From Eubacteriales bacterium (GTDB taxonomy: Bacteria > Bacillota > Clostridia > Oscillospirales > CAG-272), in assembly GCA_045127455.1 (NCBI GenBank), contig JBGVQK010000026.1:3066-67065 (forward strand): a DNA stretch of 64,000 bases, given 5' to 3'. Made by a program: the position numbers and the translations under genes. Shown here one piece after another: positions 18,058-30,890 of this stretch; position 1 is the stretch's first letter, and each line of letters starts with the position of its first letter. The notes under the pieces were generated by a model, which ran no database searches, was not told the origin of the DNA, and was given only the letters and a program-made list of their open reading frames with translations.

Positions 18058-19011
18058 ATGGTTATAACCTATGCTATTATGGCGGTTATCGCTACGATCT
18101 TGTTGCTTGGCTATTGCGGTCTTGTGCGCAAAAAAGAGCCATGGTTGCTCCTTTTGTACGTTTGCGTTACTGTTGTAAACGTAGGCTACTTTTTGCTTTC
18201 TATCTCCAAAACCGTCGAGTTTGCCATTTTTGCAAACGACCTTGTTTATCTTGGCAGCGTTTTTCTTTCCACCGCAATGCTTTTCACCATTGCCAAGCTG
18301 TGCGGCTTTGCGCTCAAAAAGAATGTGATAATCATATCGCTTCTTATTGACGTGGCGATGTTTGCCATTATTGCCACGTCGGGATTTTTGCCGTTGTACT
18401 ACAAAGAGGTCACTTTGGTCTTTGTTGACGGTGCGGCAAAGCTTGAAAAAGTGTACGGTATCCTTCACCCCACATATCTCTTTTATCTGCTTGCTTATTT
18501 TGCAGCAATGGTTGCGTGCATTGTGCAATCCGTACGCAAAAAAATGATAGCATCTCAAAAGTACGCCGTTTTGCTCACTGCCATTGTGTTTGGCAACATT
18601 GCAGTGTGGTTGGTTGAAAAATTCATCCCTTGGAATTTTGAATTTCTTTCAGTCTCCTATCTGTTCAGCGAAATTGTTTTGCTTGGACTTTATTGGATGA
18701 TGCAAGACTACATCCGCGCAGATCTTGTTCCCAAGCCTTCACCTGCAGAGGTTCGTGCCGCGGCAATCGACGTTGCCACAATGCCAATGGAAGAAAAGAT
18801 ATTAAAGGTGCTCTCCTTCCTCAAGCCCGGCGAAATGCTGACGGCAAGAGAGCGAGAAATACTCGAATTGGTCCTGCAAAACAAAAAGAGAAAAGAGATC
18901 GCCGAGGCACTTTGCCTCTCGGAAAACACCATTAAGACCTACACCCGAACGCTATACGGCAAGGTTGGTGTCGGCTCACGCGAGGAGCTTTACGCATTAC
19001 TCATTAAATAA
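18058..19011 (+). CDS. membrane-tethered LuxR/FixJ-family transcription regulator (7 TM helices plus a C-terminal HTH)
   Basis: There are seven hydrophobic helices in residues 1-225. The C-terminal LTAREREILELVLQNKKRKEIAEALCLSENTIKTYTRTLYGKVGVGSREEL is a GerE/LuxR-type HTH. No receiver or kinase motif is present. Confidence 0.8.
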   Translation: MVITYAIMAVIATILLLGYCGLVRKKEPWLLLLYVCVTVVNVGYFLLSISKTVEFAIFANDLVYLGSVFLSTAMLFTIAKLCGFALKKNVIIISLLIDVAMFAIIATSGFLPLYYKEVTLVFVDGAAKLEKVYGILHPTYLFYLLAYFAAMVACIVQSVRKKMIASQKYAVLLTAIVFGNIAVWLVEKFIPWNFEFLSVSYLFSEIVLLGLYWMMQDYIRADLVPKPSPAEVRAAAIDVATMPMEEKILKVLSFLKPGEMLTAREREILELVLQNKKRKEIAEALCLSENTIKTYTRTLYGKVGVGSREELYALLIK

Positions 19012-19200: not shown

Positions 19201-19641
19201 ATGACCCGCAAGCGAATTCTGTTTGACGAATTTGAGTTTCCACGGGTGAGCGGACTTGAATATCTGCTTGACGAAGGAAAGAGCGTTACAAATTACCTGT
19301 TTGTAAGCGACCGTCACGACGGCTTTTCGATGTACTTTGAAAACGGCTTCCCAATATTCAAGGTGCCCGAAAGCGGGGAACGCTCTTACTGCTTGTTCGA
19401 AATGAAGCGCCCTGATCGGATCATCAAATTCTTCTGCCCCGAAAAACACAAAAATTTAAGCCACGTTGTGTGGTACTTCTACGTAGAGCTCTTTGACGAG
19501 CGGGGAGTGGTACACAAGCTACCGGGGCAGGTAAGGGTGCGACGAAGGGAACCTCTTTTGCGTACTCTCGGAACTGAAAAACCGAAATTCCTCGAAATAC
19601 TTGAGCAGGTAACCCTAAACAAGCTACCCGTTGCAACTTGA
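19201..19641 (+). CDS. small soluble protein of unknown function, coupled to the giant surface-protein gene
   Basis: 146 aa from the ATG behind a GGAGGTGG RBS. It has no signal peptide and no recognised motif. Its stop lies 31 nt before the next start. Confidence 0.55.
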   Translation: MTRKRILFDEFEFPRVSGLEYLLDEGKSVTNYLFVSDRHDGFSMYFENGFPIFKVPESGERSYCLFEMKRPDRIIKFFCPEKHKNLSHVVWYFYVELFDERGVVHKLPGQVRVRRREPLLRTLGTEKPKFLEILEQVTLNKLPVAT

Positions 19642-19672
19642 CGTCTTTTTGAGAACGAAAGGAGAATTCAAA

Positions 19673-22600
19673 ATGAAAAAAACAAGAAGATTTTTGCAAA
19701 TCATCTCCGTCATGCTGCTTTGCATGGCAATGATCGCAGGTGTTATGACGATTTCCGCTTCGGCAGATAGCGTTGTCACCTCGGTTGTAGTCAACGGAGA
19801 GACCTTGAACGAAGAAAAGCCATACTTGATCAATAAGGATGGCGTGTACGTTGCCGATGATGGCGAGCTGCTTGCTTCCTATTCTTGGGTAGCGCAGTTT
19901 AATGCCGCCGAGGGCGTGCTCGTGCTCAACAATTATAACGGTGGCGCGATTTCCACCACCGCCACGGGCGATCTCACCATCAAGCTGATGGGCGAGAACA
20001 CCATTAAGCATGATGCCATTGGTATTCAAATGGCGCAAGGCGGAAATTTGACCATTACCGCCGATGCGGCGGCAACGCTGGATATTCAAAGCATCCCCTC
20101 TACGTCTCATGCCGATGAGGCGGACCACTATGTGGGAATTGACAACAACTTTGAAAACGGCTATGCGACAACTGAAAAATCAGGCGATAGTGTTACCATT
20201 CAGGGATATGCCGCCGTTTCGATCAGCTCTACCAAAACCTATAAAAGTGGTAGTGTCAACGGCATTGGCGCATACGGAAGCGTTATGGTTTTGGGAAATG
20301 CAAGCTTGAATATTACCGAAACCAACGCCTACACCAGTCTCGCAAGGGGCATTTATTCCCTTGGGGGCGCAATTGTTATCAACACCACGGGCGACGTAAA
20401 TATTGCGGTTTGCGGTGAGGCGAGCTATAACGTTGGCGAAAACGTGTTCCGTGCCGCAAGTGGAGCCGTTCTTGGTAGAGTGGGTAAGATGACTCTCGAT
20501 TGGACTTACCCCGAGTTTTATGAAGAATCCGAGGTTGAACTTGATGCCGAGCTGAGCAGTTATGTGATCGGCACGATCCCCGAGGATGACACCAGCGCGA
20601 CTTATGGGTACAAATTCCCGATCACCGTTACAGGCGGTGTTGCAAAAATGGGGGATGATGTTGTTGAAGTTGCCGCAAAGGGTGAAACTGTCACCGTAGT
20701 GGCAGATGAACCCGAAGCAGGTCAGGGCTTCTACCAATGGAGCATCCTCAATGAGGCAGCAATTACCTTTGTCGACGAAAAAGCGGCAACCACAACCTTT
20801 GAAATGATTGCCGGTAGCGTTGAGCTGGAAGCGCTCTTTACACCTGCTTATACGATTACCGCCAACAATGCTACCGCAAGTGCAGGCAGTGCGGTATCGG
20901 GCAGTGTTGTTACCGTTACTGCAGATGCTCCCCAAAAGGGCTATCAGTTTGCGGGCTGGACGGTTCAATCCGGTGGAGTCGTGCTCTCCGACCCTGCAAG
21001 CTCTACAACCTCTTTTGTGGTGGGAGATGCCGCTGTTGAGATTACCGCAACCTACATGGCAACTCCATATTTCATTACCGTCAATGGCGGTGAGGCAAGC
21101 ATAGATGATGCACCTGTTAGCGAAGCGAGCATTGCAGATACCGTTACGCTTGTAGCTGATACTCCCCCCGCAGGGAAGGCGTTTAAAGAGTGGGTGATCG
21201 TATCGGGTGAGGGAACTATTACCGATCCTACGGCAACTACCACAACGCTTACAGGCGTTTTTGGCGATATTGAGATCGAAGCAACCTACGAGGATGCTAT
21301 CTATACAATTACCGTTACCGATGGCACAGCAAACGTTGAGGGCGCAAAGATGGGCGCTGAGATCACCATTACCGCGGCTGAAGCGGCAAAGGGTTATCAG
21401 TTTGCAGGATGGACGGTCGTATCGGGCGGCGTTACGCTTGCAAACCCTGCAAACGCAACCACAACCTTTACGGTTGTCAGTGCAAACGTAGAGGTCAAAG
21501 CAAACTATGCCCCCATCGAATACACGATCGAGGTTACCAACGGTCAAGCAAAGATCGATGATACCCCCGTTACCAAAGCAACTATCATCGATACCGTTAC
21601 TCTTGTGGCAAACACTCCTGCCGCAGGCAAGGTATTTAAGGAGTGGGTCATTGTATCGGGTGAGGGAACTCTTGCCAATGCAACAGATGCTACAACAACC
21701 TTGACAGGTCTATTTGGCAATCTTATGGTTCAGGCAACCTACGAGGATGCCACCTACACCATTACCGTAACAGGCGGTACGGCAAGTGCCCAGACTGCAA
21801 AAATGGGTGACGAGATCACCATCACCGCAGAGGCGATCGCGGGCAAGACCTTTACGTCTTGGACACTTTCCAGCGGCGGTGTAACGCTCGATAGCGCAAC
21901 CTCTGCTACCACCACCTTTGTAGTTGGCACCGAGAACGTTGAACTTGTTGCAAACTACACCTTTACCGATTACAGCGTTTCCATTAAGGATGGAAAGGGA
22001 ACTGTCAACTATATTGATAACGGAATTACCGATGCAAATATCGGGGATTCGATCTATATCGTTGCAGACGATCCCGCATCCGGCTACGCGTTCATTCGTT
22101 GGGACGTGCTCTCCGGTGAGATCGAATTGGAGGATCCCACCTCATACTACACCATCTTCACGATGACCGCAGGCAACGTAGAGCTTGAGGCTGTATATGC
22201 CGAGATCGTGGTATTGGATAAATTGGAATTTACGGTCACGCCTCCTGCAGTAGGCGCACATCCCACGTTTGAGCTCGTTTCCAAGGATCCTGCAAAATAC
22301 GGAAGTGAGTACGTTAGCATTTCTTTGAACGATTCTCCTTATACAGAGCTTGGCGCTGAGGATACGTATATGCTTGGTCACTCGTATCGCCTGCAATTCC
22401 AACTCGTTCTTGCAAACGGTTATGAGATCGATGGAAACACAAAGGTATACGTCAACGGAGAAGAGACGAGCAGAAGTCTCCCGTTGTGGTTCTACTACTT
22501 TGAATTTCCCGTTTCGATCACCGTGATCAACGGTAAGGCGTATGAAGATAGCGCCCGTACCGTAGAGATCACCGAGGGCTTGAGCCAATACGTTTATCTC

Positions 22601-25600
22601 AAGGCAGACGAGGTTCCCGAAGGAAAGGTCTTTTTGGGATGGATCGTAAAATCCGGTGACGTAACGATCTATTCGCCGAACTACAAGGACTCCGCGTACT
22701 TCTATTTGAAAAATGAACCCGTAACTGTTGAAGCAGTGATTGTAGATGTACTCGAGGAAGTTGTTCTTACTGTAACAACTCCCAAGCCCGGCGATCTTGC
22801 AACCATTGAGATCACCTCTGCCGATCCCTCCAAATACACGGCGGAGCTGATTGATTTTTACATTAACAAGTCCCCCTACACACACTTGAATCCCACCGAT
22901 CCCTTTGAGTATGGCAGATCTTACACTATGCAGTTCGAGATCATTGCCGCCGAAGGCTATGCCGTTGCAGAAGGTACCGTTGTTACCGTAAACGGTGATG
23001 AGACCTACGGCTATGGCGGAGATATTACGGGATATGAAAAGCAAAGATGGAGCTTTGAGCTTCCCGTTTCCATTACCGTTATAAACGGCAAGGCGTATAC
23101 CTCAAGCGAATACACCGAAGAGATCGTTGAATTTTACAGTCCCGGAAGCCTCTTCATCAAAGCAGACGAAGCACCCGAGGGTAAAGAATTTTTGATGTGG
23201 AAGATCACCATGGACGGTGACATTACCTATAACCATTACAACCCAACAAACATTTGGGTAGGTAGTGCCTCGGTTGTCGTTTGTGAGGCGATCTACGCCA
23301 TTCCGATCAACACGATCGAGTTGACGATGCCCAAAATAACGGTTGGTAGCACGCCCATCACCACCGTTACCACCGAAAGCGATCTTTACACGGTAGAGGT
23401 TGAAGCGTGGTACAACGTCGGGGATACGCGCGTCCAAATGCTGCCCACCGATACTTACGTAGCAGATGCATTCTATGAGTGCAGATTCATCATTACTCCT
23501 AAGGATGGGTACTGTGTAGGCAATCACGCCAAGATCAGCGTAAACGGCAAGACGGGAAACACCGGCGGTTACCATGTTGGAACCGCAATAATCGGTGCTT
23601 ACGTGCAGCTGTATGATCTGATCCCTGTTGGTATTGAGGTCACAGGCGGCAAGCTCTATCTTGACGGCGTAGAGACCAACGAGACCGAGTTCCTCCCCGG
23701 TACCACCCTGACGTTGGTTGCAGATAAGAGCCTTTATCCCGAAGGTGAAACCTTTACAAGGTGGTATTTCCCGTCGTACTCTTCTACTTTGATCAAATAT
23801 ACCGACGAAAGAGCCGAAAGCTTTACCTTTACCATTTGCGAACCGCCTGCCAGAGACCGCATGGTTACTATGGAAGCACAGTATGCGGCACTCACCTCTG
23901 TTTATTACCTCGACACCTACGTACCGCACCCCGTTGTTGGCGGAACCCCATCCTATGATGCAGGTGTTAACAAATGGCAGAACTACTTTGCTGAGGTGCT
24001 TGCTTGGTATGAGGGCGAAACTCTTTTGGAGACAGATCACGTATTTGAGGCAGGCAAGACCTACACCGTAAAAATTCGTCTCGAGCCCGCCCCCGGCTAT
24101 TACTTCCCGCCGTTGGATTTCGAGTATCTGCGTGCCGATAACACCTTTAGCGGCAACAGTGCGGACGGAATTTTCCTTGAGCGTGGCGAAAATGGCGAAT
24201 ACATCATCTTTGAATCCTCCATTACGGCAAAACAATTCCAAGAGAATATATCCGTAACCGTTACAACACCCGTTGCAGGTATGCTTCCCAGCGACGTTGT
24301 AGAAAAGGACGGCGACGTCAATTGCGACGTAGAGTTTGGCGGTTGGCTATACTGGGACGAAGAAAAGGGAATGTACGTTGCATTGGCAGAGGGCGAACGC
24401 TTTGAGGTTGGCAAGACCTACCGCGTTGACGTCGAGTTCGCATCCAACGATACCTACTTTATTGATTACAACAATATCACAGCTCTTATCAACGGCAAAA
24501 AACCCGTCCGCTTTAGCAGCGGAAACAAGGATGGCGGACTTTGCACTGTTGGATACTATTTGGAGTTTGCCGTAGAGGCAGATGGTTCAACCTTTGACCT
24601 CGAAGTAGAAAACGGCAGCGCAACCGTTGACGAAGCCCCCGTTACCGAGGTCGGCGGCGGTATCGTAGTCACCATCACCGCAGACGCTCCCGAGGACGGC
24701 AAGGCGTTCAAGGGTTGGGTCGTTGTCAGCGGCGAAAGTGTTGTATTCGTCGATGCAACTGCATCCACTACCACCTTTGTAATGCCCGCAGGCAACGTTA
24801 GAATTCAAGCGGTTTACCGCAATATTCCTTATACCATTACCGTAGTGGACGGTGAAGCAGACCTGAGTGAGGCAGGCAGCGGTGAAACGGTTACCGTTAC
24901 GGCAGGCGAGGCTCCCGACGGCAAGTATTTTGCAGGCTGGGAATGCACCGCAGGCGGCGTAACCTTTACAGATGAAACTGCAAAGACTACCACGTTTGTT
25001 ATGACAGGTGAAGCTGTTACCGTCAAGGCGGTTTATGCCGACAAGATCGTTTTGGAAGAAATGGAATTCACCATTCCCGCTCCCGCATACGGAGAGAATC
25101 CTTCCTACGTGATCACCTCCAAGGATCCCGAAAAGTATACGGCAACGGTTGCATATTGGTATCGCAATTCTGACAGCGAAGATCTGACTCCCGAAAGCAC
25201 ATTTGCATACGGAGAGGGATATACCATTCGCTTTACCATTGCAGCATCCGAAAAATACACGTTTAACTATAACACCACCATCCTTCTCAATGGTGAGGAA
25301 TGTGGTTCCTATGGTTTAACAGGTCGTCAATACACGCTGTTCCAAATTCCCGTTCCCATTACAATTGAGGGTGGCACGGCATTTGATACAAGCAGCAATC
25401 CGATTGACGCACAAGTCAACGGCTTCTACGTAAAGCTCAAAGTGGGCGAGATCCCCGCAGGCAAGAGCTTCTCGCATTGGGAGGTTGTCAGCGGCAACGT
25501 TACTCTGTATTCGCCTACCTCTCTCGATGGTGCATACTTCTACATTGGCAAAGAGCCAGTTGAAATTCGTGCGATCTATCACACGCATACCTACGATGAT

Positions 25601-28600
25601 ACCTATAAATCCAATGCTACACACCATTGGCATGAATGCACCGATCCCGCTTGCACCGACAAAGAGGGCAGCATCAAGGATAAGGTAGAGCACACATGGG
25701 ATAACACCTGTGACACCGCATGTAACGATTGCGGACATACTCGCGATATCACACATACCTATAGCGATTATATTCCTCAAAAGGATGCAAACTGTATCGA
25801 AACGGGTATGAAGGCGCATTACGAGTGCTCGGTATGCCATGCACTCTTTGACACAAGCTTCAACGCTACCACCGAGCAAGCGTTGACCATTGCTATCAAC
25901 GATTCTCACAGCTTTGGCGATTGGGCATCCAATGGCGACGGCACGCACACAAGAGTTTGCTCGCGCAACAACGAGCACACCGAAACCGACGATTGCGAGG
26001 GCGGTACCGCAACTTGTGTTGCAAAAGCAATTTGTTCCACTTGCGAAGCTGCTTACGGCAACCTTGGCGCACACAGCTATGGCGTCAAGATCGAGGAGGT
26101 TCCCACCACCCACACCAAGGATACTCTTACACAGGGTGTTAAGGCACACTTCCAATGCGGCCTTTGCGCAAAGTATTTCGACGAGGGCAAAAACCCCGTT
26201 GATTACGAAGATCTTATTATCCCCGCGCCCACTCACGTCTACGGTGAATGGATCAAGGATAACGACAACCACTGGAAGACTTGCGAATGCGGCAAGAAGG
26301 ATCAGCTTGGCGAGCACGTTTACGACGATGAAGCCGATATGATCTGTAACACTTGTAGCTACGATCGCACCGCTCCGCACACCCATGGTGATGGCGAAAA
26401 GGTAAACGGTCAGGCAGCAACCTGCACCACCGACGGTTGGAAAGACTACTATCAATGCTCCTGCGGTCACATTTATACCGATAAGGATTGCACAAACGAA
26501 ATTACCAGCCTTGTTGACTGGAAGGCAGGCGAGGGCAAGATCGCGGCAGCACATACGCTGGGCGACCCCATCGCGGCAGTAGAGGCTAACTGTACCGAAA
26601 AGGGTATGCAGCAGCACCGCAAGTGCTCTGTTTGCGGCACTCTGTTCGATATGGACGGCAACGTAAGAAGCGCCGAGGAGCTTTCCATTGCAACCAACGG
26701 CAAACACGCTTACGGTGCTTGGGCATCCAACGGCGATGGCACGCACACAAGAATCTGCTCGCACAACAACGAGCACAAGGAGACCGTTGCTTGCGCAGGC
26801 GGCACCGCTACCTGCACCGAAGCGGCAGTTTGCTCCACTTGTAACACCGCTTATGGCGAGGCCAACGGACACGATTATAGCGAAGCAACCTGTACCAAGA
26901 AGGCGACCTGCTCGGTTTGTGGCGACGAAACGGGCGAGCTGAAGCCTCACGATTACAGCGAAGCGACCTGCACAAAGAAAGCTACCTGCTCGGTTTGCGG
27001 TGGCGAAACGGGCGACCTCAAGCCTCACGATTATAGCGAAGCAACCTGCACAAAGAAGGCTACCTGCTCCGTATGTGGCGCAGAAACAGGCGAATTGAAG
27101 CCTCACGATTACAGCGAAGCAACCTGTGCAAAGAAAGCAACCTGCTCGGTATGCGGTGCCGAAACCGGTGATTTTGCCGCACACAACTACGGCGATAAGA
27201 TCGAGGCAGTTCCCGCAACGCACACCAAGGATGAATTGCTGGCAGGTATGCAAGCGCACTACCATTGCGCAGTTTGCGACAAATACTTTGATGCAAATAA
27301 AAATCCCGTAGAGCAAGCAGCTCTAATCATTCCCGCACCCACGCACGTATGGGGCACTTGGGTCAAGAATGACAGCACCCACTGGAAGGCTTGCGAATGT
27401 GGCAAAAAGGATCAAGAGGGCGCACACGTTTACGATAACGTAACCGATATGCTCTGTAACACCTGTAACTACGACCGCACCGCTCCGCACACTCACGGAG
27501 ATGGAGAAAAGGTCAACGGTCAAGCAGCTACCTGCACAACCGACGGTTGGAAGGATTACTATCAATGCTCCTGCGGTCACATCTACACCGAAAAGGAATG
27601 CACAAATGAAATTACAAACCTCGTTGCTTGGAAGGCAGGCGAGGGCAGAATCGCAGCAGCACACACACTTGGCGATCTGATTGCCGCAACCGAGCCCAAC
27701 TGCACGGTCGAAGGTAAAAAGGCACACTACGAGTGCTCCGTTTGCTCCACTCTCTTTGACGAGGAAAAGAACGTTAAAACAGAGAGTGAGCTGACCATCC
27801 CCACCAACGGCACACACGCCTTTGGCGCTTGGGCATCCAACGGTGACGGTACGCACACAAGAGTTTGCTCGCATAACAATGCTCACAAGGAAAGTGAAGA
27901 TTGCGCAGGCGGCACCGCTACCTGCACCGAGGCAGCGGTTTGCTCCACCTGTAACACGGCTTACGGCAAGGCTAATGGACACGACTACAGTGAAGCGACC
28001 TGCACCAAGAAAGCTACTTGCTCCGTATGTGGTGACGAGACCGGCGAATTGAAAGCGCACGATTACAGCGAGGCGACTTGCACTAAGAAGGCAACCTGCT
28101 CCGTATGTGGAGATGAAACCGGTGAATTGAAGGCACACGATTACAGTGAAGCAACTTGCACAAAGAAAGCTACTTGCTCTGTATGCGGTGACGAGACCGG
28201 TGAATTGAAGGCACACGATTACAGTGAAGCAACCTGTATCGCAAAGGCAAAATGCTCTGTATGTCAGCAAGAAACCGGTGACTTCGCAGATCACAAGTAT
28301 AGCGAAGCAACCTGCACAGCAAAAGCAAAATGCTCTGTATGTCAACAAGAGACCGGCGATTTCGCAGATCACAAGTATAGCGACGCAACCTGCACGGCAA
28401 AGGCGAAATGCTCCGTATGTCAACAAGAGACCGGTGATCTTGCAGATCACAAGTATAGCGAAGCAACCTGTACGGCAAAGGCAAAATGCTCCGTATGTCA
28501 ACAAGAGACCGGCGATTTCGCAGATCACGTTGACGCAAATGAGGACGGAAAGTGCGACGTTTGCCAGCATCAAATGAGCACAATTCCCGAACAGACAACT

Positions 28601-28909
28601 CCCGAGCCCGAACAGACCACTCCCGAGCCTGAGGGAACGACCCCCGAGCCCGAGAACCCCGAAAACCCCGACGATCAACCCGATGATCCCGAAGAGCCCA
28701 AGACGGGACTTTCCGGCGGAGCCGTTGCAGGCATCGTTATTGCTTCTACCGCAGTTGCGGGAGCCGGTGGCTTTGCAGTTTGGTGGTTCGCAATTCAAAA
28801 GCATACCGTAGCAGAGCTTGGAAGCGCCTGCAAAACGGTTGGTGGAAAGATTGGCGGTTTCTTCAAGGGCGTCTTTGAAAAAATCAAAAATCTGTTCTCC
28901 AAAAAATAA
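19673..28909 (+). CDS. giant (3078-aa) cell-surface protein with repeat modules, a Cys/His-rich stalk and a C-terminal membrane anchor
   Basis: The signal peptide is MKKTRRFLQIISVMLLCMAMIAGVMTISASA. There are 13 modules with G-x-x-F-x-x-W-x-V-x-S-G (Listeria-Bacteroides / InlB-B-repeat-like) and 6 interleaved modules of about 95 aa. A Cys/His-rich region of about 1000 aa spans 25580-28560. The C-terminus has a P/E/T linker, EPKTG, a TM helix and a cationic tail. Confidence 0.9.
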   Translation: MKKTRRFLQIISVMLLCMAMIAGVMTISASADSVVTSVVVNGETLNEEKPYLINKDGVYVADDGELLASYSWVAQFNAAEGVLVLNNYNGGAISTTATGDLTIKLMGENTIKHDAIGIQMAQGGNLTITADAAATLDIQSIPSTSHADEADHYVGIDNNFENGYATTEKSGDSVTIQGYAAVSISSTKTYKSGSVNGIGAYGSVMVLGNASLNITETNAYTSLARGIYSLGGAIVINTTGDVNIAVCGEASYNVGENVFRAASGAVLGRVGKMTLDWTYPEFYEESEVELDAELSSYVIGTIPEDDTSATYGYKFPITVTGGVAKMGDDVVEVAAKGETVTVVADEPEAGQGFYQWSILNEAAITFVDEKAATTTFEMIAGSVELEALFTPAYTITANNATASAGSAVSGSVVTVTADAPQKGYQFAGWTVQSGGVVLSDPASSTTSFVVGDAAVEITATYMATPYFITVNGGEASIDDAPVSEASIADTVTLVADTPPAGKAFKEWVIVSGEGTITDPTATTTTLTGVFGDIEIEATYEDAIYTITVTDGTANVEGAKMGAEITITAAEAAKGYQFAGWTVVSGGVTLANPANATTTFTVVSANVEVKANYAPIEYTIEVTNGQAKIDDTPVTKATIIDTVTLVANTPAAGKVFKEWVIVSGEGTLANATDATTTLTGLFGNLMVQATYEDATYTITVTGGTASAQTAKMGDEITITAEAIAGKTFTSWTLSSGGVTLDSATSATTTFVVGTENVELVANYTFTDYSVSIKDGKGTVNYIDNGITDANIGDSIYIVADDPASGYAFIRWDVLSGEIELEDPTSYYTIFTMTAGNVELEAVYAEIVVLDKLEFTVTPPAVGAHPTFELVSKDPAKYGSEYVSISLNDSPYTELGAEDTYMLGHSYRLQFQLVLANGYEIDGNTKVYVNGEETSRSLPLWFYYFEFPVSITVINGKAYEDSARTVEITEGLSQYVYLKADEVPEGKVFLGWIVKSGDVTIYSPNYKDSAYFYLKNEPVTVEAVIVDVLEEVVLTVTTPKPGDLATIEITSADPSKYTAELIDFYINKSPYTHLNPTDPFEYGRSYTMQFEIIAAEGYAVAEGTVVTVNGDETYGYGGDITGYEKQRWSFELPVSITVINGKAYTSSEYTEEIVEFYSPGSLFIKADEAPEGKEFLMWKITMDGDITYNHYNPTNIWVGSASVVVCEAIYAIPINTIELTMPKITVGSTPITTVTTESDLYTVEVEAWYNVGDTRVQMLPTDTYVADAFYECRFIITPKDGYCVGNHAKISVNGKTGNTGGYHVGTAIIGAYVQLYDLIPVGIEVTGGKLYLDGVETNETEFLPGTTLTLVADKSLYPEGETFTRWYFPSYSSTLIKYTDERAESFTFTICEPPARDRMVTMEAQYAALTSVYYLDTYVPHPVVGGTPSYDAGVNKWQNYFAEVLAWYEGETLLETDHVFEAGKTYTVKIRLEPAPGYYFPPLDFEYLRADNTFSGNSADGIFLERGENGEYIIFESSITAKQFQENISVTVTTPVAGMLPSDVVEKDGDVNCDVEFGGWLYWDEEKGMYVALAEGERFEVGKTYRVDVEFASNDTYFIDYNNITALINGKKPVRFSSGNKDGGLCTVGYYLEFAVEADGSTFDLEVENGSATVDEAPVTEVGGGIVVTITADAPEDGKAFKGWVVVSGESVVFVDATASTTTFVMPAGNVRIQAVYRNIPYTITVVDGEADLSEAGSGETVTVTAGEAPDGKYFAGWECTAGGVTFTDETAKTTTFVMTGEAVTVKAVYADKIVLEEMEFTIPAPAYGENPSYVITSKDPEKYTATVAYWYRNSDSEDLTPESTFAYGEGYTIRFTIAASEKYTFNYNTTILLNGEECGSYGLTGRQYTLFQIPVPITIEGGTAFDTSSNPIDAQVNGFYVKLKVGEIPAGKSFSHWEVVSGNVTLYSPTSLDGAYFYIGKEPVEIRAIYHTHTYDDTYKSNATHHWHECTDPACTDKEGSIKDKVEHTWDNTCDTACNDCGHTRDITHTYSDYIPQKDANCIETGMKAHYECSVCHALFDTSFNATTEQALTIAINDSHSFGDWASNGDGTHTRVCSRNNEHTETDDCEGGTATCVAKAICSTCEAAYGNLGAHSYGVKIEEVPTTHTKDTLTQGVKAHFQCGLCAKYFDEGKNPVDYEDLIIPAPTHVYGEWIKDNDNHWKTCECGKKDQLGEHVYDDEADMICNTCSYDRTAPHTHGDGEKVNGQAATCTTDGWKDYYQCSCGHIYTDKDCTNEITSLVDWKAGEGKIAAAHTLGDPIAAVEANCTEKGMQQHRKCSVCGTLFDMDGNVRSAEELSIATNGKHAYGAWASNGDGTHTRICSHNNEHKETVACAGGTATCTEAAVCSTCNTAYGEANGHDYSEATCTKKATCSVCGDETGELKPHDYSEATCTKKATCSVCGGETGDLKPHDYSEATCTKKATCSVCGAETGELKPHDYSEATCAKKATCSVCGAETGDFAAHNYGDKIEAVPATHTKDELLAGMQAHYHCAVCDKYFDANKNPVEQAALIIPAPTHVWGTWVKNDSTHWKACECGKKDQEGAHVYDNVTDMLCNTCNYDRTAPHTHGDGEKVNGQAATCTTDGWKDYYQCSCGHIYTEKECTNEITNLVAWKAGEGRIAAAHTLGDLIAATEPNCTVEGKKAHYECSVCSTLFDEEKNVKTESELTIPTNGTHAFGAWASNGDGTHTRVCSHNNAHKESEDCAGGTATCTEAAVCSTCNTAYGKANGHDYSEATCTKKATCSVCGDETGELKAHDYSEATCTKKATCSVCGDETGELKAHDYSEATCTKKATCSVCGDETGELKAHDYSEATCIAKAKCSVCQQETGDFADHKYSEATCTAKAKCSVCQQETGDFADHKYSDATCTAKAKCSVCQQETGDLADHKYSEATCTAKAKCSVCQQETGDFADHVDANEDGKCDVCQHQMSTIPEQTTPEPEQTTPEPEGTTPEPENPENPDDQPDDPEEPKTGLSGGAVAGIVIASTAVAGAGGFAVWWFAIQKHTVAELGSACKTVGGKIGGFFKGVFEKIKNLFSKK
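26072..28291 (+). repeat. tandem in-frame segmental duplication of about 1110 nt inside the giant gene
   Basis: The block AHSYGVKIEEVPTTHTKD... (from 26072) recurs as AHNYGDKIEAVPATHTKD... (from 27182). The two copies stay colinear for 798 nt up to the start of each 78-nt array. Confidence 0.85.
26870..27181 (+). repeat. 4 tandem 78-nt (26-aa) coding repeats, HDYSEATCTKKATCSVCG-ETG-LKP
   Basis: Copies start at 26870, 26948, 27026 and 27104. Copies 1 and 2, compared codon by codon, differ mostly at synonymous sites. Confidence 0.95.
27980..28525 (+). repeat. 7 tandem 78-nt (26-aa) coding repeats (3 TKKATC-type plus 4 AKAKC-type)
   Basis: HDYSEATCTKKATCSVCGDETGELKA occurs 3 times, followed by H(D/K)YS(E/D)ATC(I/T)AKAKCSVCQQETGD(F/L)AD 4 times. 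Confidence 0.95.
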
Positions 28910-29093: not shown

Positions 29094-30890
29094 ATGAAAC
29101 GCAAAGCAAAACTTTTCTTGATCTTTTCGATTTTAGTTTGTCTTCTCAGTTCCATAGGCGCAAGTCTTTTCCAAACCAACTTTGGGCAGGTCACATATCA
29201 CGATATGACCTTTGTTACCGAAAGCGGACACGAATTGGACGCACTCTTGCTCGTTCCCAAAACCGCAACCAAAGAAAACAAAGCCCCCGCAATTGTTGTA
29301 AGCCACGGCTGGTACAACAACCGCGAAATGCAGGATCTTAACTACGTTGAATACGCTCGCAGAGGCTACGTAGTGCTTGCCATCAGTATGTACGGCCACG
29401 GCGACTCCGAGGTCATCGAATCCAACACCTGGTGGAATGACGAAAACAACGCCAACGGTCTTTACGATGGCGTAAAATACGTTGCCGAGCTGCCTTTTGT
29501 TGATGCAAGCAAAATCGGTGTTACAGGGCATTCCAACGGTGCTCTCGCTTGCAGAGAAGCCGTATTGCAGGACAAAGAAGGGCTGATCTCTGCTGCTTTG
29601 CTTGTTTCCAACGATGCGGTGTACTATGACGAGGACGGCAACTTCTACAACCAATTCGGCTCTCGCGATGCCGCAATCGTTGCTTGCCAATACGATGAAT
29701 TTTTCCACCGCGTTGACGGCAATCCCCCAAGAGAGTACATCAATCAGGTAACCGCGCAGTCCTTCTTGCACTTCGGCGTTGATCCCGCAGGGCTTGATAA
29801 GCGCGTTGCAGGTGAATTCTATACAGACGAAATTGACGGTGAGGTTGCCATTCGTGCAATCTACAACCCCGCAATCACACACCCGTGGGCGCATTTTTCA
29901 ACTGACGTAGTTGCATTTAGCGTCAACTTCTTTGACCACGTGTTTGGCGAGCCCGTTTCCCGTGATAGATACGATCAGATCTGGCAGATCAAGGCAGCCT
30001 TTAATGCACTTGGCGTTGTTGGCTTCTTTATGTTCCTGGCAGCCCTGACGTTTGCTCTGCTCGAAACGCCTTACTTTGGCGTTCTCAAGGCAAGCGAGCC
30101 CGTTCAGCCTTGGCCCGCTCTCGAGGGACGCGCCAAAAAGGTTGCCCGTCGCAGAGGCTTCTGGAGCGTGATATGCAGCATTCTTTTCTACTTTATCGGC
30201 TTCATCATCGGCTTTGTCGGCTCTATGTTCATCGGTATTTGGAATCAAGGCGGTTCCTTTGCCATTGGTGCGTGGTCGTTGCTCTGCGGTCTGTTCACCA
30301 TGGGCACGATGCGCAAGATCAAAAAGCGCACCTATATTGATCCTTGGGAAAGAGGTGTGAAGGTCGGCAAGCCCAAAATGCGTCGTTCTATCCTTCTTGC
30401 ACTCACGGTCGTATGCGCGGCATTCTTGCTCGTTTTCCTTTCGGATTACCTCTTCCTCACCGATTACAGACTTTGGTGCTTTGCAACCATCAGAGCGTTT
30501 GATGCAAAGCATCTTGTCAAGGTTCTTTGCTTCCTGCCTTTCTGGCTCGTTTACTACATTGCAACCAGTGTATCGGCAAACTGCTATGGCTATGCTATGA
30601 AGGGCAAGCGTCGCGGCACACCCGTTTTGCGCCAGATGTTCCTTGTTTTCATTGGCCCCGCTTTGATGATCGCAATCCAGTATGCCAAGTTCTTTATTAC
30701 CGGCAAGATGGTGCTTGACCCCATCACCGGCATTATGGGTATTTGGCTTTTCCCGATCGTTGTGATCCTTCCTATATCCGTTCTCATCAGCAATGCCATT
30801 TACAAGCGCACAAAGAACCCCTACATTGGCGGCATCATTATGGCGATCGTAGCGTGCATTCTGACTGTAACGAACACGCTCACCGGCTAA
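29094..30890 (+). CDS. fusion of an extracytoplasmic alpha/beta serine hydrolase with a C-terminal polytopic membrane domain
   Basis: An N-terminal signal-anchor is followed by a hydrolase domain of about 300 aa, with HGW oxyanion-like and GHSNG nucleophile motifs. About 7 hydrophobic helices follow (residues about 300-598). Confidence 0.7.
   Translation: MKRKAKLFLIFSILVCLLSSIGASLFQTNFGQVTYHDMTFVTESGHELDALLLVPKTATKENKAPAIVVSHGWYNNREMQDLNYVEYARRGYVVLAISMYGHGDSEVIESNTWWNDENNANGLYDGVKYVAELPFVDASKIGVTGHSNGALACREAVLQDKEGLISAALLVSNDAVYYDEDGNFYNQFGSRDAAIVACQYDEFFHRVDGNPPREYINQVTAQSFLHFGVDPAGLDKRVAGEFYTDEIDGEVAIRAIYNPAITHPWAHFSTDVVAFSVNFFDHVFGEPVSRDRYDQIWQIKAAFNALGVVGFFMFLAALTFALLETPYFGVLKASEPVQPWPALEGRAKKVARRRGFWSVICSILFYFIGFIIGFVGSMFIGIWNQGGSFAIGAWSLLCGLFTMGTMRKIKKRTYIDPWERGVKVGKPKMRRSILLALTVVCAAFLLVFLSDYLFLTDYRLWCFATIRAFDAKHLVKVLCFLPFWLVYYIATSVSANCYGYAMKGKRRGTPVLRQMFLVFIGPALMIAIQYAKFFITGKMVLDPITGIMGIWLFPIVVILPISVLISNAIYKRTKNPYIGGIIMAIVACILTVTNTLTG

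Follow-up and report, generated by a model that had tools for sequence, protein, structure and literature searches.

Within the 64,000-nucleotide stretch of DNA analysed here (the window), a gene for a large surface protein encodes a His/Cys-rich stalk region that includes eleven tandem 26-residue units under strong purifying selection; array-end sequence statistics and structural modelling suggest that the metal site is probably shared by neighbouring units, not contained within one. We think it rather likely, if far from certain, that these minimal His/Cys units are metal-stapled to their neighbours and form a spacer rod. The analysis itself establishes the repeat anatomy, the purifying selection, homology to the ZBD domains of an IgA protease, a confident all-β prediction, how prevalent the module is, and the statistics of array ends; metal occupancy and identity, the exact set of ligands, rigidity, rod length and the spacer role are what the model predicts from these.

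Layout of the surface protein and its 26-residue units

The likely start of the gene is the ATG at 19673, with an AGGAG motif 8 nt 5′ of it; the mechanically called ORF (19631-28909, + strand) begins with a TTG at 19631. The features of the gene are as follows.

19673..28909, + strand: surface-protein gene, ~3,078 aa, likely start ATG 19673
19673..19765, + strand: Sec-type signal peptide (MKKTRRFLQIISVMLLCMAMIAGVMTISASA), from reading of the sequence
19763..20620, + strand: unique N-terminal head domain, aa 45-330, without a family match
20621..25585, + strand: 13 InlB B-repeat (Flg_new_2) domains interspersed with six copies of an unassigned ~100-aa domain
25577..28576, + strand: His/Cys-rich stalk region, aa 1983-2982, with 27 CxxC/CxC knuckles and ~30-35 predicted tetrahedral sites
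25580..25588, + strand: N-cap H-T-H, aa 1984-1986, the proposed upstream ligand of the first site
26072..26869, + strand: super-repeat copy 1, aa 2148-2413, longer His/Cys modules with GGTATC-x5-CSTC at the end
26870..27181, + strand: array 1, four 26-aa units (HDYSEATCTKKATCSVCGxETGxLKP)
27182..27979, + strand: super-repeat copy 2, aa 2518-2783
27980..28525, + strand: array 2, seven 26-aa units, three K-type followed by four of the window-specific CSVCQQETGDFAD type
28526..28573, + strand: C-cap H2966-x8-C2975-x2-C2978, a His and a knuckle with the donor Cys absent
28574..28717, + strand: Pro/Glu/Thr-rich flexible linker, containing a 21-nt repeat (28586-28629)
28718..28909, + strand: C-terminal transmembrane helix and basic tail, with EEPKTG just before

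The InlB B-repeats were identified as Pfam PF18998 (E 6e-64), and their internal copies were mapped by jackhmmer. The signal peptide and the C-terminal transmembrane helix agree with the extracellular stalk proposed in the initial annotation, and a signal or anchor is likewise found at the N-terminus of 170 of the 195 complete array-bearing homologues. A sortase anchor, suggested by EEPKTG, was rejected because this motif reads EEPKKG in orthologues. The window also contains the sporulation gene yqfD, and relatives are MAGs of gut Clostridia, as expected if the host is, as had been supposed, an anaerobe.

Tandem Repeats Finder detected a period of 78 nt at 26870-27165 (3.8 copies, score 410) and 27979-28512 (6.9 copies). 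In the translated ORF (+ strand) the in-register units begin at nt 26870, 26948, 27026 and 27104 in array 1, and at nt 27980, 28058, 28136, 28214, 28292, 28370 and 28448 in array 2, matching the 4 + 7 His-Cys-Cys-Cys units of the initial annotation. Their consensus is H-[DK]-Y-S-[ED]-A-T-C-x-[KA]-K-A-[TK]-C-S-V-C-x-x-E-T-G-x-x-x-x, where H1, C8, C14 and C17 (ligand pattern H-x6-C-x5-C-x2-C) are fixed in all eleven. The region around them, described earlier (as nt 25580-28560) as very rich in Cys and His, indeed has 84 Cys and 57 His in aa 1983-2982, versus 11 Cys in the first 1,900 residues of the protein. The further claim that the core of the unit recurs throughout this region in degenerate form stands only in part: exact ATC-x5-C-x2-C has just three extra copies outside the arrays (GGTATC...CSTC), and the remainder consists of related but longer His/Cys modules, including the two super-repeat copies, which are 75% identical to each other. 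The 26-aa unit aligns with a ~41-aa module with an hhalign probability of 95.9%, and among the various His/Cys mini-modules that fill aa 1983-2982 it is the shortest.

The codon comparison previously reported for the copies at 26870 and 26948 proved exact (9.0 synonymous and 2.0 non-synonymous differences), and over all unit pairs pS is 0.67 and pN 0.15, indicating strong purifying selection. The units at 27980, 28058 and 28136 encode one identical peptide, yet carry 9-14 synonymous differences; divergence among units is 9-32 of 78 nt, with W09 and W11 alone close (4 nt apart). In 69 four-unit windows, H1, C8, C14 and C17 are the only invariant residues; A6, T7 and G22 come close to invariance, and there is free variation at surface positions.

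Predicted fold and relation to the IgA protease stalk

The initial annotation had called for an AlphaFold model of several units. Our AlphaFold2 model of the four units of array 1, metal-free as all AlphaFold2 models are, is a confident all-β prediction (pLDDT 93.9, pTM 0.66), with a bridge at Y3, a strand A12-C14, the CxxC turn and a strand E20-T21 in each unit, and no helices. Each unit is thus predicted to be a tiny three-stranded up-and-down β-sheet, in which H1 and the knuckle would lie at one end of the meander, and C8 and the chain exit at the opposite end. The model of super-repeat copy 2 (pLDDT 83.8) has only short strands and CxxC turns. Foldseek searches of the PDB returned nothing significant with either the array model (best E 0.46, TM ≤0.22) or the super-repeat model (best E 0.007, TM ≤0.11), these low TM-scores applying to all PDB targets, globular ones included. 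A sequence search of the PDB with the 26-aa units alone gave rabphilin noise only and no match to the IgA protease discussed below; a 2m7b match (E 0.075) was dropped, as it has no conserved Cys.

A related stalk fold, missed by the initial annotation, was published in 2025 as ZBD1/ZBD2 (= CTD2/CTD4) of the Thomasclavelia ramosa IgA protease, an M64 igalysin (PMC12237041, PMC12415215). Its description comes from AlphaFold models and SAXS only, and its zinc sites are predicted (PMC12237041, PMC12415215): the model has three-stranded up-and-down sheets with Zn at subdomain interfaces and extends ~110 Å per 129 residues (PMC12237041), and SAXS supports an extended rod (PMC12237041, PMC12415215). 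The profile of aa 2518-2783 matched residues 851-1110 of 9qa6_A in four stretches (E 2.2e-13); the single-sequence search gave E 1.9e-5. Since the 26-aa unit has no direct match, the link runs through the neighbouring long modules, with which it aligns as given above in a profile-profile comparison whose inputs had been picked by a His/Cys regular expression. By profile comparison, then, the stalk region, aa 1983-2982, is homologous to ZBD1/ZBD2.

Small three-stranded sheets are predicted in both proteins, and in both the His/Cys sites would lie between sheets (2His+2Cys or 3Cys+1His in the protease). Each protein belongs to the surface of a Gram-positive gut anaerobe and has these sheets next to its anchor, each has been proposed to form a rigid 'periscope' stalk, and for neither does the PDB contain a structural homologue. 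They differ in scale and regularity: in the IgA protease, 5 modules of ~34-55 aa, not identical to one another, make up two short domains, whereas the window protein has ~30 modules, 11 of them strictly periodic 26-aa units with the C8-C14 loop cut to 5 residues.

Array ends and the proposed shared metal site

The simplest reading of four invariant residues per unit, and the one assumed in the initial annotation, is that H1, C8, C14 and C17 of a single 26-aa unit make up a self-contained metal site, the units following one another as beads on a string; that a His opens every module type agrees with this. The ends of arrays, however, point elsewhere. Terminal units retain H1, C14 and C17, and have C8 replaced by Y, L, T and other residues. 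Scoring C8 together with the His of the following unit in 120 homologues, we found both in 633 cases, C8 only in 27, His only in 1 and neither in 13 (p 2e-16); among 133 independent 50%-identity representatives the corresponding counts were 1109, 2, 2 and 17 (p 1.5e-33). C8 is kept only where another His-module comes next. At the other end, a Cys or His at position -2 precedes 57 of 107 true first units, versus 3 of 916 internal ones (p 1.6e-59), and this N-cap position is filled about equally by Cys (56) and His (42); the ~45% of 'first' units without C/H at -2 include some, but not all, that are probably misclassified. The window fits both end rules, with the region opening with H-T-H and its C-terminal end being H-x8-CxxC without a donor; a Cys at -19 precedes array 1.

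The retention rule for C8 and the C/H at -2 lead to a proposed site C8(i-1)+H1(i)+C14(i)+C17(i). From the array-end statistics and the predicted strand topology we infer that a tetrahedral metal ion, most likely Zn2+, would join each unit to the next, its ligands being C8 from the bottom loop of unit i-1, and H1 and the C14-x2-C17 knuckle atop unit i. The self-contained site leaves unexplained why C8 alone is lost in terminal units that lack a following His-module, why C/H appears at -2 before first units, and why the terminal cap H-x8-CxxC has three ligands; furthermore, in the predicted three-stranded meander C8 would sit opposite H1 and the knuckle. We therefore regard it as unlikely and favour the site shared between neighbours. 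The rule of donor, H1 and knuckle also reproduces the 2H2C and 3C1H compositions reported for the IgA protease, and it accounts for the last ZBD1 module, which likewise has no donor Cys.

The same statistics bear on whether metal is bound at all. Extracellular Cys-rich repeats are usually disulfide-bonded, and the CxxC pair would be able to form a disulfide, as metal-free spacers of an EGF-type-like kind would require. The number of Cys per unit, however, is odd (three), the His is invariant, Cys and His interchange both at the N-cap and at donor positions (ATC/ATH/HW), the hosts live strictly anaerobically in reducing habitats, and no disulfides were seen in the IgA protease, which has 24 Cys (PMC12237041), making a disulfide spacer very improbable. 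The preference of the initial annotation for metal knuckles over ordinary disulfides is favoured by H, C, C, C being the sole invariants and by the Cys/His interchange at the N-cap, as well as by the flanking modules being homologous to the parts of the IgA protease where Zn sites are predicted.

A redox-active or cross-linked stalk was also considered, with Fe centres that transfer electrons or with thioether bridges made by a maturase. The C-x5-C-x2-C spacing resembles that of radical-SAM peptide substrates, and electrons might in principle pass along a chain of metal sites. We consider this extremely improbable. There is no radical-SAM, dehydratase or cyclase gene within ~8 kb on either side, which speaks against the thioether-forming stalk entertained in the initial annotation; the proteins that contain the module number more than 10,000, are unrelated and combine it with varied partners; and one site per ~22 Å, as estimated from the length of ZBD1, would be too sparse for efficient tunnelling.

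Distribution, proposed function and resemblance to known systems

Among 1.84 billion representative proteins, 10,322 cluster representatives match the 26-aa unit; arrays reach 20 units, and the module is very common in gut and rumen Clostridia. It corresponds to no named family, and the initial annotation had recognised none: comparison of the whole protein, of parts of it and of several homologues with Pfam, NCBIfam and PHROGs gave no match in the His/Cys region other than sub-threshold zinc-ribbon fragments. Labels of C1_1 and GDH_HM2 precomputed on homologues were rejected as sums of partial repeat matches. For the C1 domain (PF00130) only profile positions 1-20 of 53 were matched, with no stretch passing alone; its total score was a sum of repeated partial matches, so the region cannot be assigned to this domain, the profile of which has two Zn sites. 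In the literature searched, for the motif itself and for clostridial repeats rich in Cys or binding zinc, the 2025 papers on the IgA protease were the only relevant ones.

In the 195 complete homologues, 67 arrays begin ≤70 aa from the N-terminus, 47 of them following a lipobox-like motif, and 31 end ≤250 aa from a C-terminal transmembrane helix. Another 82 are internal rather than anchor-adjacent, so that 'wall-spanning' is not a universal description. The module connects lipid or membrane anchors with deacetylases, proteases, solute-binding proteins, adhesins and cohesin/dockerin scaffolds.

In the window protein the longer related modules would, together with the 26-aa units, make aa 1984-2978 one continuous chain with ~30-35 stapled sites. 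Such a chain would be a stiff rod without a hydrophobic core, ~80 nm long and adjoining the C-terminal membrane anchor, which may hold the B-repeats and the N-terminal head off the cell surface. Gain and loss of units would tune its length, the likely function being that of a length-variable spacer. Unit numbers do differ among orthologues (4+7 in the window, 4+6 in L001 and 3+4 in L002); one-to-one orthology of units was sought between the window and L001, and not found.

Other roles for the arrays, namely binding of cell-wall polymers or of some ligand from the host or elsewhere, and the buffering or sensing of zinc, appear quite unlikely to us. Arrays are often anchor-adjacent, and ~30 sites per protein would store substantial Zn; Cys3His sites, however, are typically tight structural sites. 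The high variability of non-ligand surface positions argues against a conserved binding face, and some homologues already have SLH, cohesin or dockerin domains for attachment. Regulation of the stalk by zinc has been the subject of speculation by the PNAS authors.

Beyond the spacer reading itself, we put forward more tentatively, at somewhat less than an even chance, that anaerobic Firmicutes have a large, so far unannotated class of extracellular rods stapled by zinc, with this unit as the minimal block; metal would be shared between consecutive units, and the integrity and length of the stalk would be zinc- and anoxia-dependent. If this is true, the stalk would depend directly on zinc supply and an anoxic milieu, and in gut commensals thousands of surface enzymes and adhesins would see their stalks collapse when the host sequesters zinc or when they are exposed to oxygen. 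By the shared-ligand rule, a shortage of zinc, or oxidation, could put many surface functions of commensals out of action together. Structural zinc-thiolate sites are regarded as mainly intracellular; those of this module seem to lie outside the cell and to be what chiefly stabilises a protein rod. Defining the family would give an annotation to thousands of regions now called 'hypothetical', and the strictly periodic 26-aa unit would be convenient as a model system and might lend itself to the design of rigid spacers.

The proposed rod resembles the stalks of periscope proteins and fibrillar adhesins (SasG/Aap G5-E, Rib), which are elongated, anchor-adjacent tandem arrays of single-layer β-sheets without a hydrophobic core, thought to project a functional head, and vary in repeat number between strains or species, as the window protein and its orthologues do. 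The two are related neither in sequence nor in fold. Periscope repeats are typically near-identical in DNA, as expected of recombinational length change, whereas synonymous divergence among the window units is saturated (pS ~0.67). In Aap, moreover, zinc mediates dimerisation via His/Asp/Glu, and does not staple units inside one chain.

Tandem C2H2 zinc-finger arrays such as CTCF share periodic units of ~26-28 aa, a CxxC knuckle with a His, and the logic of one Zn per unit, and the only matches of the A1 profile were weak ones to C2H2 finger arrays (E 8e-4). C2H2 fingers, however, are intracellular, ββα in fold and have a Cys2His2 site inside one unit, whereas the window unit is helix-free in the model, Cys3His and extracellular, with ligands probably shared between units. 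Assignment to the C2H2 finger (C-x2-4-C-x12-H-x3-5-H) was rejected, as Pfam zf-H2C2_2 scored below the cut-off (E 0.99) and helices are absent; the resemblance is one of analogy only. Zinc ribbons and rubredoxin-like knuckles (TFIIS, Rpb9, RBR/IBR) likewise place a CxxC knuckle at a β-hairpin turn, and they differ from the window unit, which has one knuckle per unit and would take its other ligands from the His and from the loop Cys of the neighbouring unit. The weak Foldseek list for the array model consists entirely of such knuckle domains, none of them significant (scores as above), and the PLoS Pathogens authors note that subdomain I of ZBD1 distantly resembles the Zn domain of TFIIS.

The repeat arrays and the protein that carries them

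Both arrays of the 26-residue (78-nt) unit lie in the gene for a giant protein of about 3,078 residues. Translation likely starts at ATG 19673 rather than at the mechanical TTG 19631, because this ATG opens a typical signal peptide and is preceded by AGGAG at a distance of 8 nt. The features are:

19631-28909, + strand: single very long ORF with both arrays
N-terminus of the giant protein, + strand: Sec signal peptide
aa 45-330 (window 19763-20620), + strand: unique head domain
aa 331-1985, + strand: 13 InlB B-repeat/Flg_new_2 domains (Pfam E 6e-64 for the B-repeats) interleaved with six copies of a ~100-aa domain
aa 1983-2982, + strand: His/Cys-rich region, 1,000 residues
26870, 26948, 27026, 27104, + strand: unit starts of array 1, in register by translation
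27980, 28058, 28136, 28214, 28292, 28370, 28448, + strand: unit starts of array 2, in register by translation
C-terminal of the His/Cys region, + strand: Pro/Glu/Thr-rich linker
end of the giant protein, + strand: one C-terminal transmembrane helix and a basic tail

Tandem Repeats Finder detected period-78 arrays at 26870-27165 and 27979-28512 and, together with translation, confirmed the 4 + 7 tandem in-register units of the initial annotation; H1, C8, C14 and C17 are kept in 11 of 11. The annotation's count of 9 synonymous and 2 non-synonymous differences between the units at 26870 and 26948 proved exact, and its proposal that the peptide is under selection with no recent DNA homogenisation holds over all 55 unit pairs (pS 0.67 versus pN 0.15). 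The adjacent units 27980, 28058 and 28136 (window 27980-28213) encode the identical 26-mer HDYSEATCTKKATCSVCGDETGELKA, with 9-14 synonymous and 0 non-synonymous differences. From this codon comparison, the repeats are real, in frame and held at the peptide level rather than through DNA homogenisation. The threefold occurrence of one peptide with scrambled codons exceeds what simple constraint predicts, since homologues vary at most non-ligand positions.

In the His/Cys region there are 84 Cys and 57 His; the first 1,900 residues of the protein have 11 Cys. Within it a ~266-aa super-repeat (aa 2148-2413 and 2518-2783; copies 75% identical) occurs twice, each time followed by a 26-aa array. Neither the head nor the six-copy ~100-aa domain (window 22232-25366) has a Pfam or NCBIfam match, and a PDB sequence search with the first 1,969 residues found nothing at E 0.01 or better. 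In the linker, a 21-nt repeat (window 28586-28629) encodes the heptad PEQTTPE; the linker of the orthologue L003 is much longer, with over 15 copies of EEDTTEP, and linker length is therefore also variable. EEPKTG directly before the transmembrane helix (window 28691-28720) resembles a clostridial sortase motif; it is EEPKKG in the orthologues L001 and L002, and is probably not a sorting signal.

The window comes from the chromosome of a spore-forming Firmicute, and the gene neighbours are ordinary (M3 peptidase, 7TM-LuxR regulator, alpha/beta-hydrolase membrane protein and yqfD; more distantly IF-2, MutS2 and AlaS). Redox or thioether chemistry of the stalk, which the initial annotation had raised, has no supporting genes nearby (no radical-SAM or other peptide-modifying enzyme is among the genes within about 8 kb on either side), and the predicted sites would be too sparse for it. 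Some 650 nt upstream of the giant gene, the same strand (18058-19011) codes for a protein that joins a HisKA_7TM domain to a LuxR/GerE DNA-binding domain, a possible regulator. The downstream gene (29094-30890) encodes an alpha/beta-hydrolase domain, with weak AXE1, S15 and DLH matches and a C-terminal half that looks hydrophobic.

Probable ligand sharing between neighbouring units

The four conserved residues of a unit could form a self-contained site, or C8, C14 and C17 could be completed by the His of the next unit. Array ends bear on both arrangements. Units were anchored by H1, C14 and C17 only, and C8 was then scored. In 120 homologues, units with C8 and a following His, C8 only, His only and neither numbered 633/27/1/13 (Fisher p 2e-16), the 27 C8-only cases being mostly 1-2-residue indels. 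In a second set of 133 independent representatives, taken from a search with A1 (a profile of 69 four-unit stretches from homologues) and with the following His allowed at positions 24-29, the counts were 1109/2/2/17 (p 1.5e-33). Array-final units thus retain H1, C14 and C17, and replace C8 by Y, L, T, E and others. Exactly three ligands are also present in the short H-x6-8-CxxC caps that close arrays. At the other end, C or H occupies position -2 in 57 of 107 first units that lack an upstream Cys module, versus 3 of 916 units inside arrays (p 1.6e-59); C and H at this cap position are about equally frequent (56 versus 42). These patterns speak against both arrangements. The loss of C8 at array ends and the C or H at -2 instead fit a predicted site i composed of a donor from the previous module (C8 or the -2 cap residue) and H1, C14 and C17 of unit i. 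In the lipoprotein homologues P0032, P0038, P0067 and others the first unit directly follows the lipobox, as C-x-C-x-H or CC-x2-H, and residue -2 may there be a second Cys right behind the lipidated one.

As read from the sequence, this sharing rule is obeyed at every boundary in the window. The region starts with H1984-T-H1986; upstream of array 1, C2395 lies at -19 relative to H2414; a long module with a His donor takes over from array 1; and array 2 ends in H2966-x8-C2975-x2-C2978, which has no donor. Donor positions accept either Cys or His, and each unit has three Cys; both features argue for metal ligation over disulfides. Disulfide-bonded modules are also contradicted by the invariant His, by the odd number of Cys and by host ecology, in line with the annotation's view of metal sites, here predicted ones, rather than ordinary disulfide domains.

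A related proposed stalk and the extent of the family

The one entry matched in a PDB sequence search was the Thomasclavelia ramosa IgA protease, 9qa6 (E 1.9e-5 with a single sequence; E 2.2e-13 with a super-repeat profile, four matching stretches spanning chain residues 851-1110). The matched part is named ZBD1/ZBD2 in PMC12237041 and CTD2/CTD4 in PMC12415215 (both 2025). There, predicted models and SAXS describe small three-stranded up-and-down sheets in an end-to-end row, 129 residues spanning about 110 A, with putative Zn sites at the sheet interfaces (four 2His+2Cys, one 3Cys+1His); SAXS of isolated CTD2 fits an extended rod, and a new 'metal-associated periscope' fold is proposed (PMC12237041, PMC12415215). 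The rule of donor, H1 and CxxC knuckle, with a His donor ('ATH' or 'HW'), reproduces the reported (predicted) 2His+2Cys sites. The last ZBD1 module (9qa6_A 936-960) reads PAT-A-T...C-T-V-C, in contrast to PAT-C-T elsewhere; it has no donor and no His-module follows, the same donor loss as at the ends of 26-aa arrays.

An extracellular Zn-linked small-sheet stalk on a gut Firmicute surface protein was proposed in 2025, from predicted models of one enzyme (PMC12237041, PMC12415215). New here are the strictly periodic 26-aa unit as the minimal form; the size of the family, for which no family model exists; and a sequence-derived ligand-sharing rule, checkable with simple mutants, in which metal binding and geometry are putative. 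The unit indeed falls outside named families, as first suspected: no model in Pfam, NCBIfam or PHROGs passed its threshold in the His/Cys region. Homologues bear precomputed C1_1 and GDH_HM2 labels; each adds up partial repeat matches, and no stretch passes by itself. A literature search did not find the motif in print.

The query aa 2518-2990 gave, among the matches listed, more than 2,099 at E below 1e-5, many with strictly periodic 26-aa arrays of consensus H-x-W/Y-x-x-A-T-C-T-x-P-K-T-C-S-x-C-G-x-T-x-G-x-x-L-G. These arrays typically directly follow a signal peptide or lipobox and are fused to polysaccharide deacetylase, Trypsin_2, cohesin/dockerin, SBP_bac_3, CotH, SLH or LRR domains. With A1 searched against 1.84 billion representative proteins, matches numbered 10,322 for an E cut-off of 1e-3, 6,408 for 1e-10 and 1,730 for 1e-30; the longest strict run in the 133 best newly returned proteins was 20 units. 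Only H1, C8, C14 and C17 are invariant in the 69 stretches of A1, with A6, T7 and G22 nearly so. Genomic matches come from Lachnospiraceae, Ruminococcus, Faecalibacterium, Acutalibacteraceae, Christensenellaceae and unclassified gut and rumen Clostridia. Profile-profile alignment relates the unit to a common ~41-aa module (H-x-Y...P-T-C-T-x-x-G-Y...C-x-x-C-G...G-H) with 95.9% probability and a 4-residue deletion in the C8-C14 loop, an agreement partly built in by the choice of inputs with a His/Cys regular expression.

Predicted structure and a probable spacer

AlphaFold2 modelled array 1 from A1 with pLDDT 93.9 and pTM 0.66. Each unit has a bridge at Y3, a strand A12-C14, a turn C14-S-V-C17-G, a strand E20-T21 and 0 helices. 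A three-stranded meander would place H1 and the beta2-beta3 knuckle together at one end, and C8 (beta1-beta2 loop) and the chain exit at the other, beside the next unit, a topology that agrees with the predicted donor plus H1/C14/C17 site. The super-repeat model (pLDDT 83.8, pTM 0.40) again has short strands. Foldseek against the PDB found nothing significant for the array (best E 0.46, TM at most 0.22; the weak list comprises zinc ribbons, RBR and C1 domains) or for the super-repeat (TM at most 0.11).

The His/Cys region has 27 knuckles, and its 141 Cys and His would suffice for about 35 four-ligand sites. Most likely, aa 1984-2978 would be an unbroken series of about 30-35 mini-sheets stapled by metal. 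Scaled from ZBD1 (about 0.85 A per residue), the length would be roughly 2.2 nm per 26-aa unit, which makes about 24 nm for all 11 and about 85 nm over the entire region. Zinc would be the likeliest metal for the predicted Cys3His sites, and restriction to obligate anaerobes would suit exposed thiolates.

The predicted rod adjoins the C-terminal anchor, and about half of the homologues have their arrays next to a lipid anchor or transmembrane segment. Unit number differs across orthologues (4+7, 4+6 and 3+4), the last four units of array 2 being a window-specific expansion. Given this position and variation, the arrays probably serve as a length-tunable rigid spacer that keeps the B-repeats and head off the cell. 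Binding of the wall or a ligand by the arrays, or zinc buffering, is disfavoured by the variable surface positions. For the array-1 segment (aa 2406-2525), the nearest matches in the genome collection are Eubacteriales MAGs, with 88% and 80% identity to the query.
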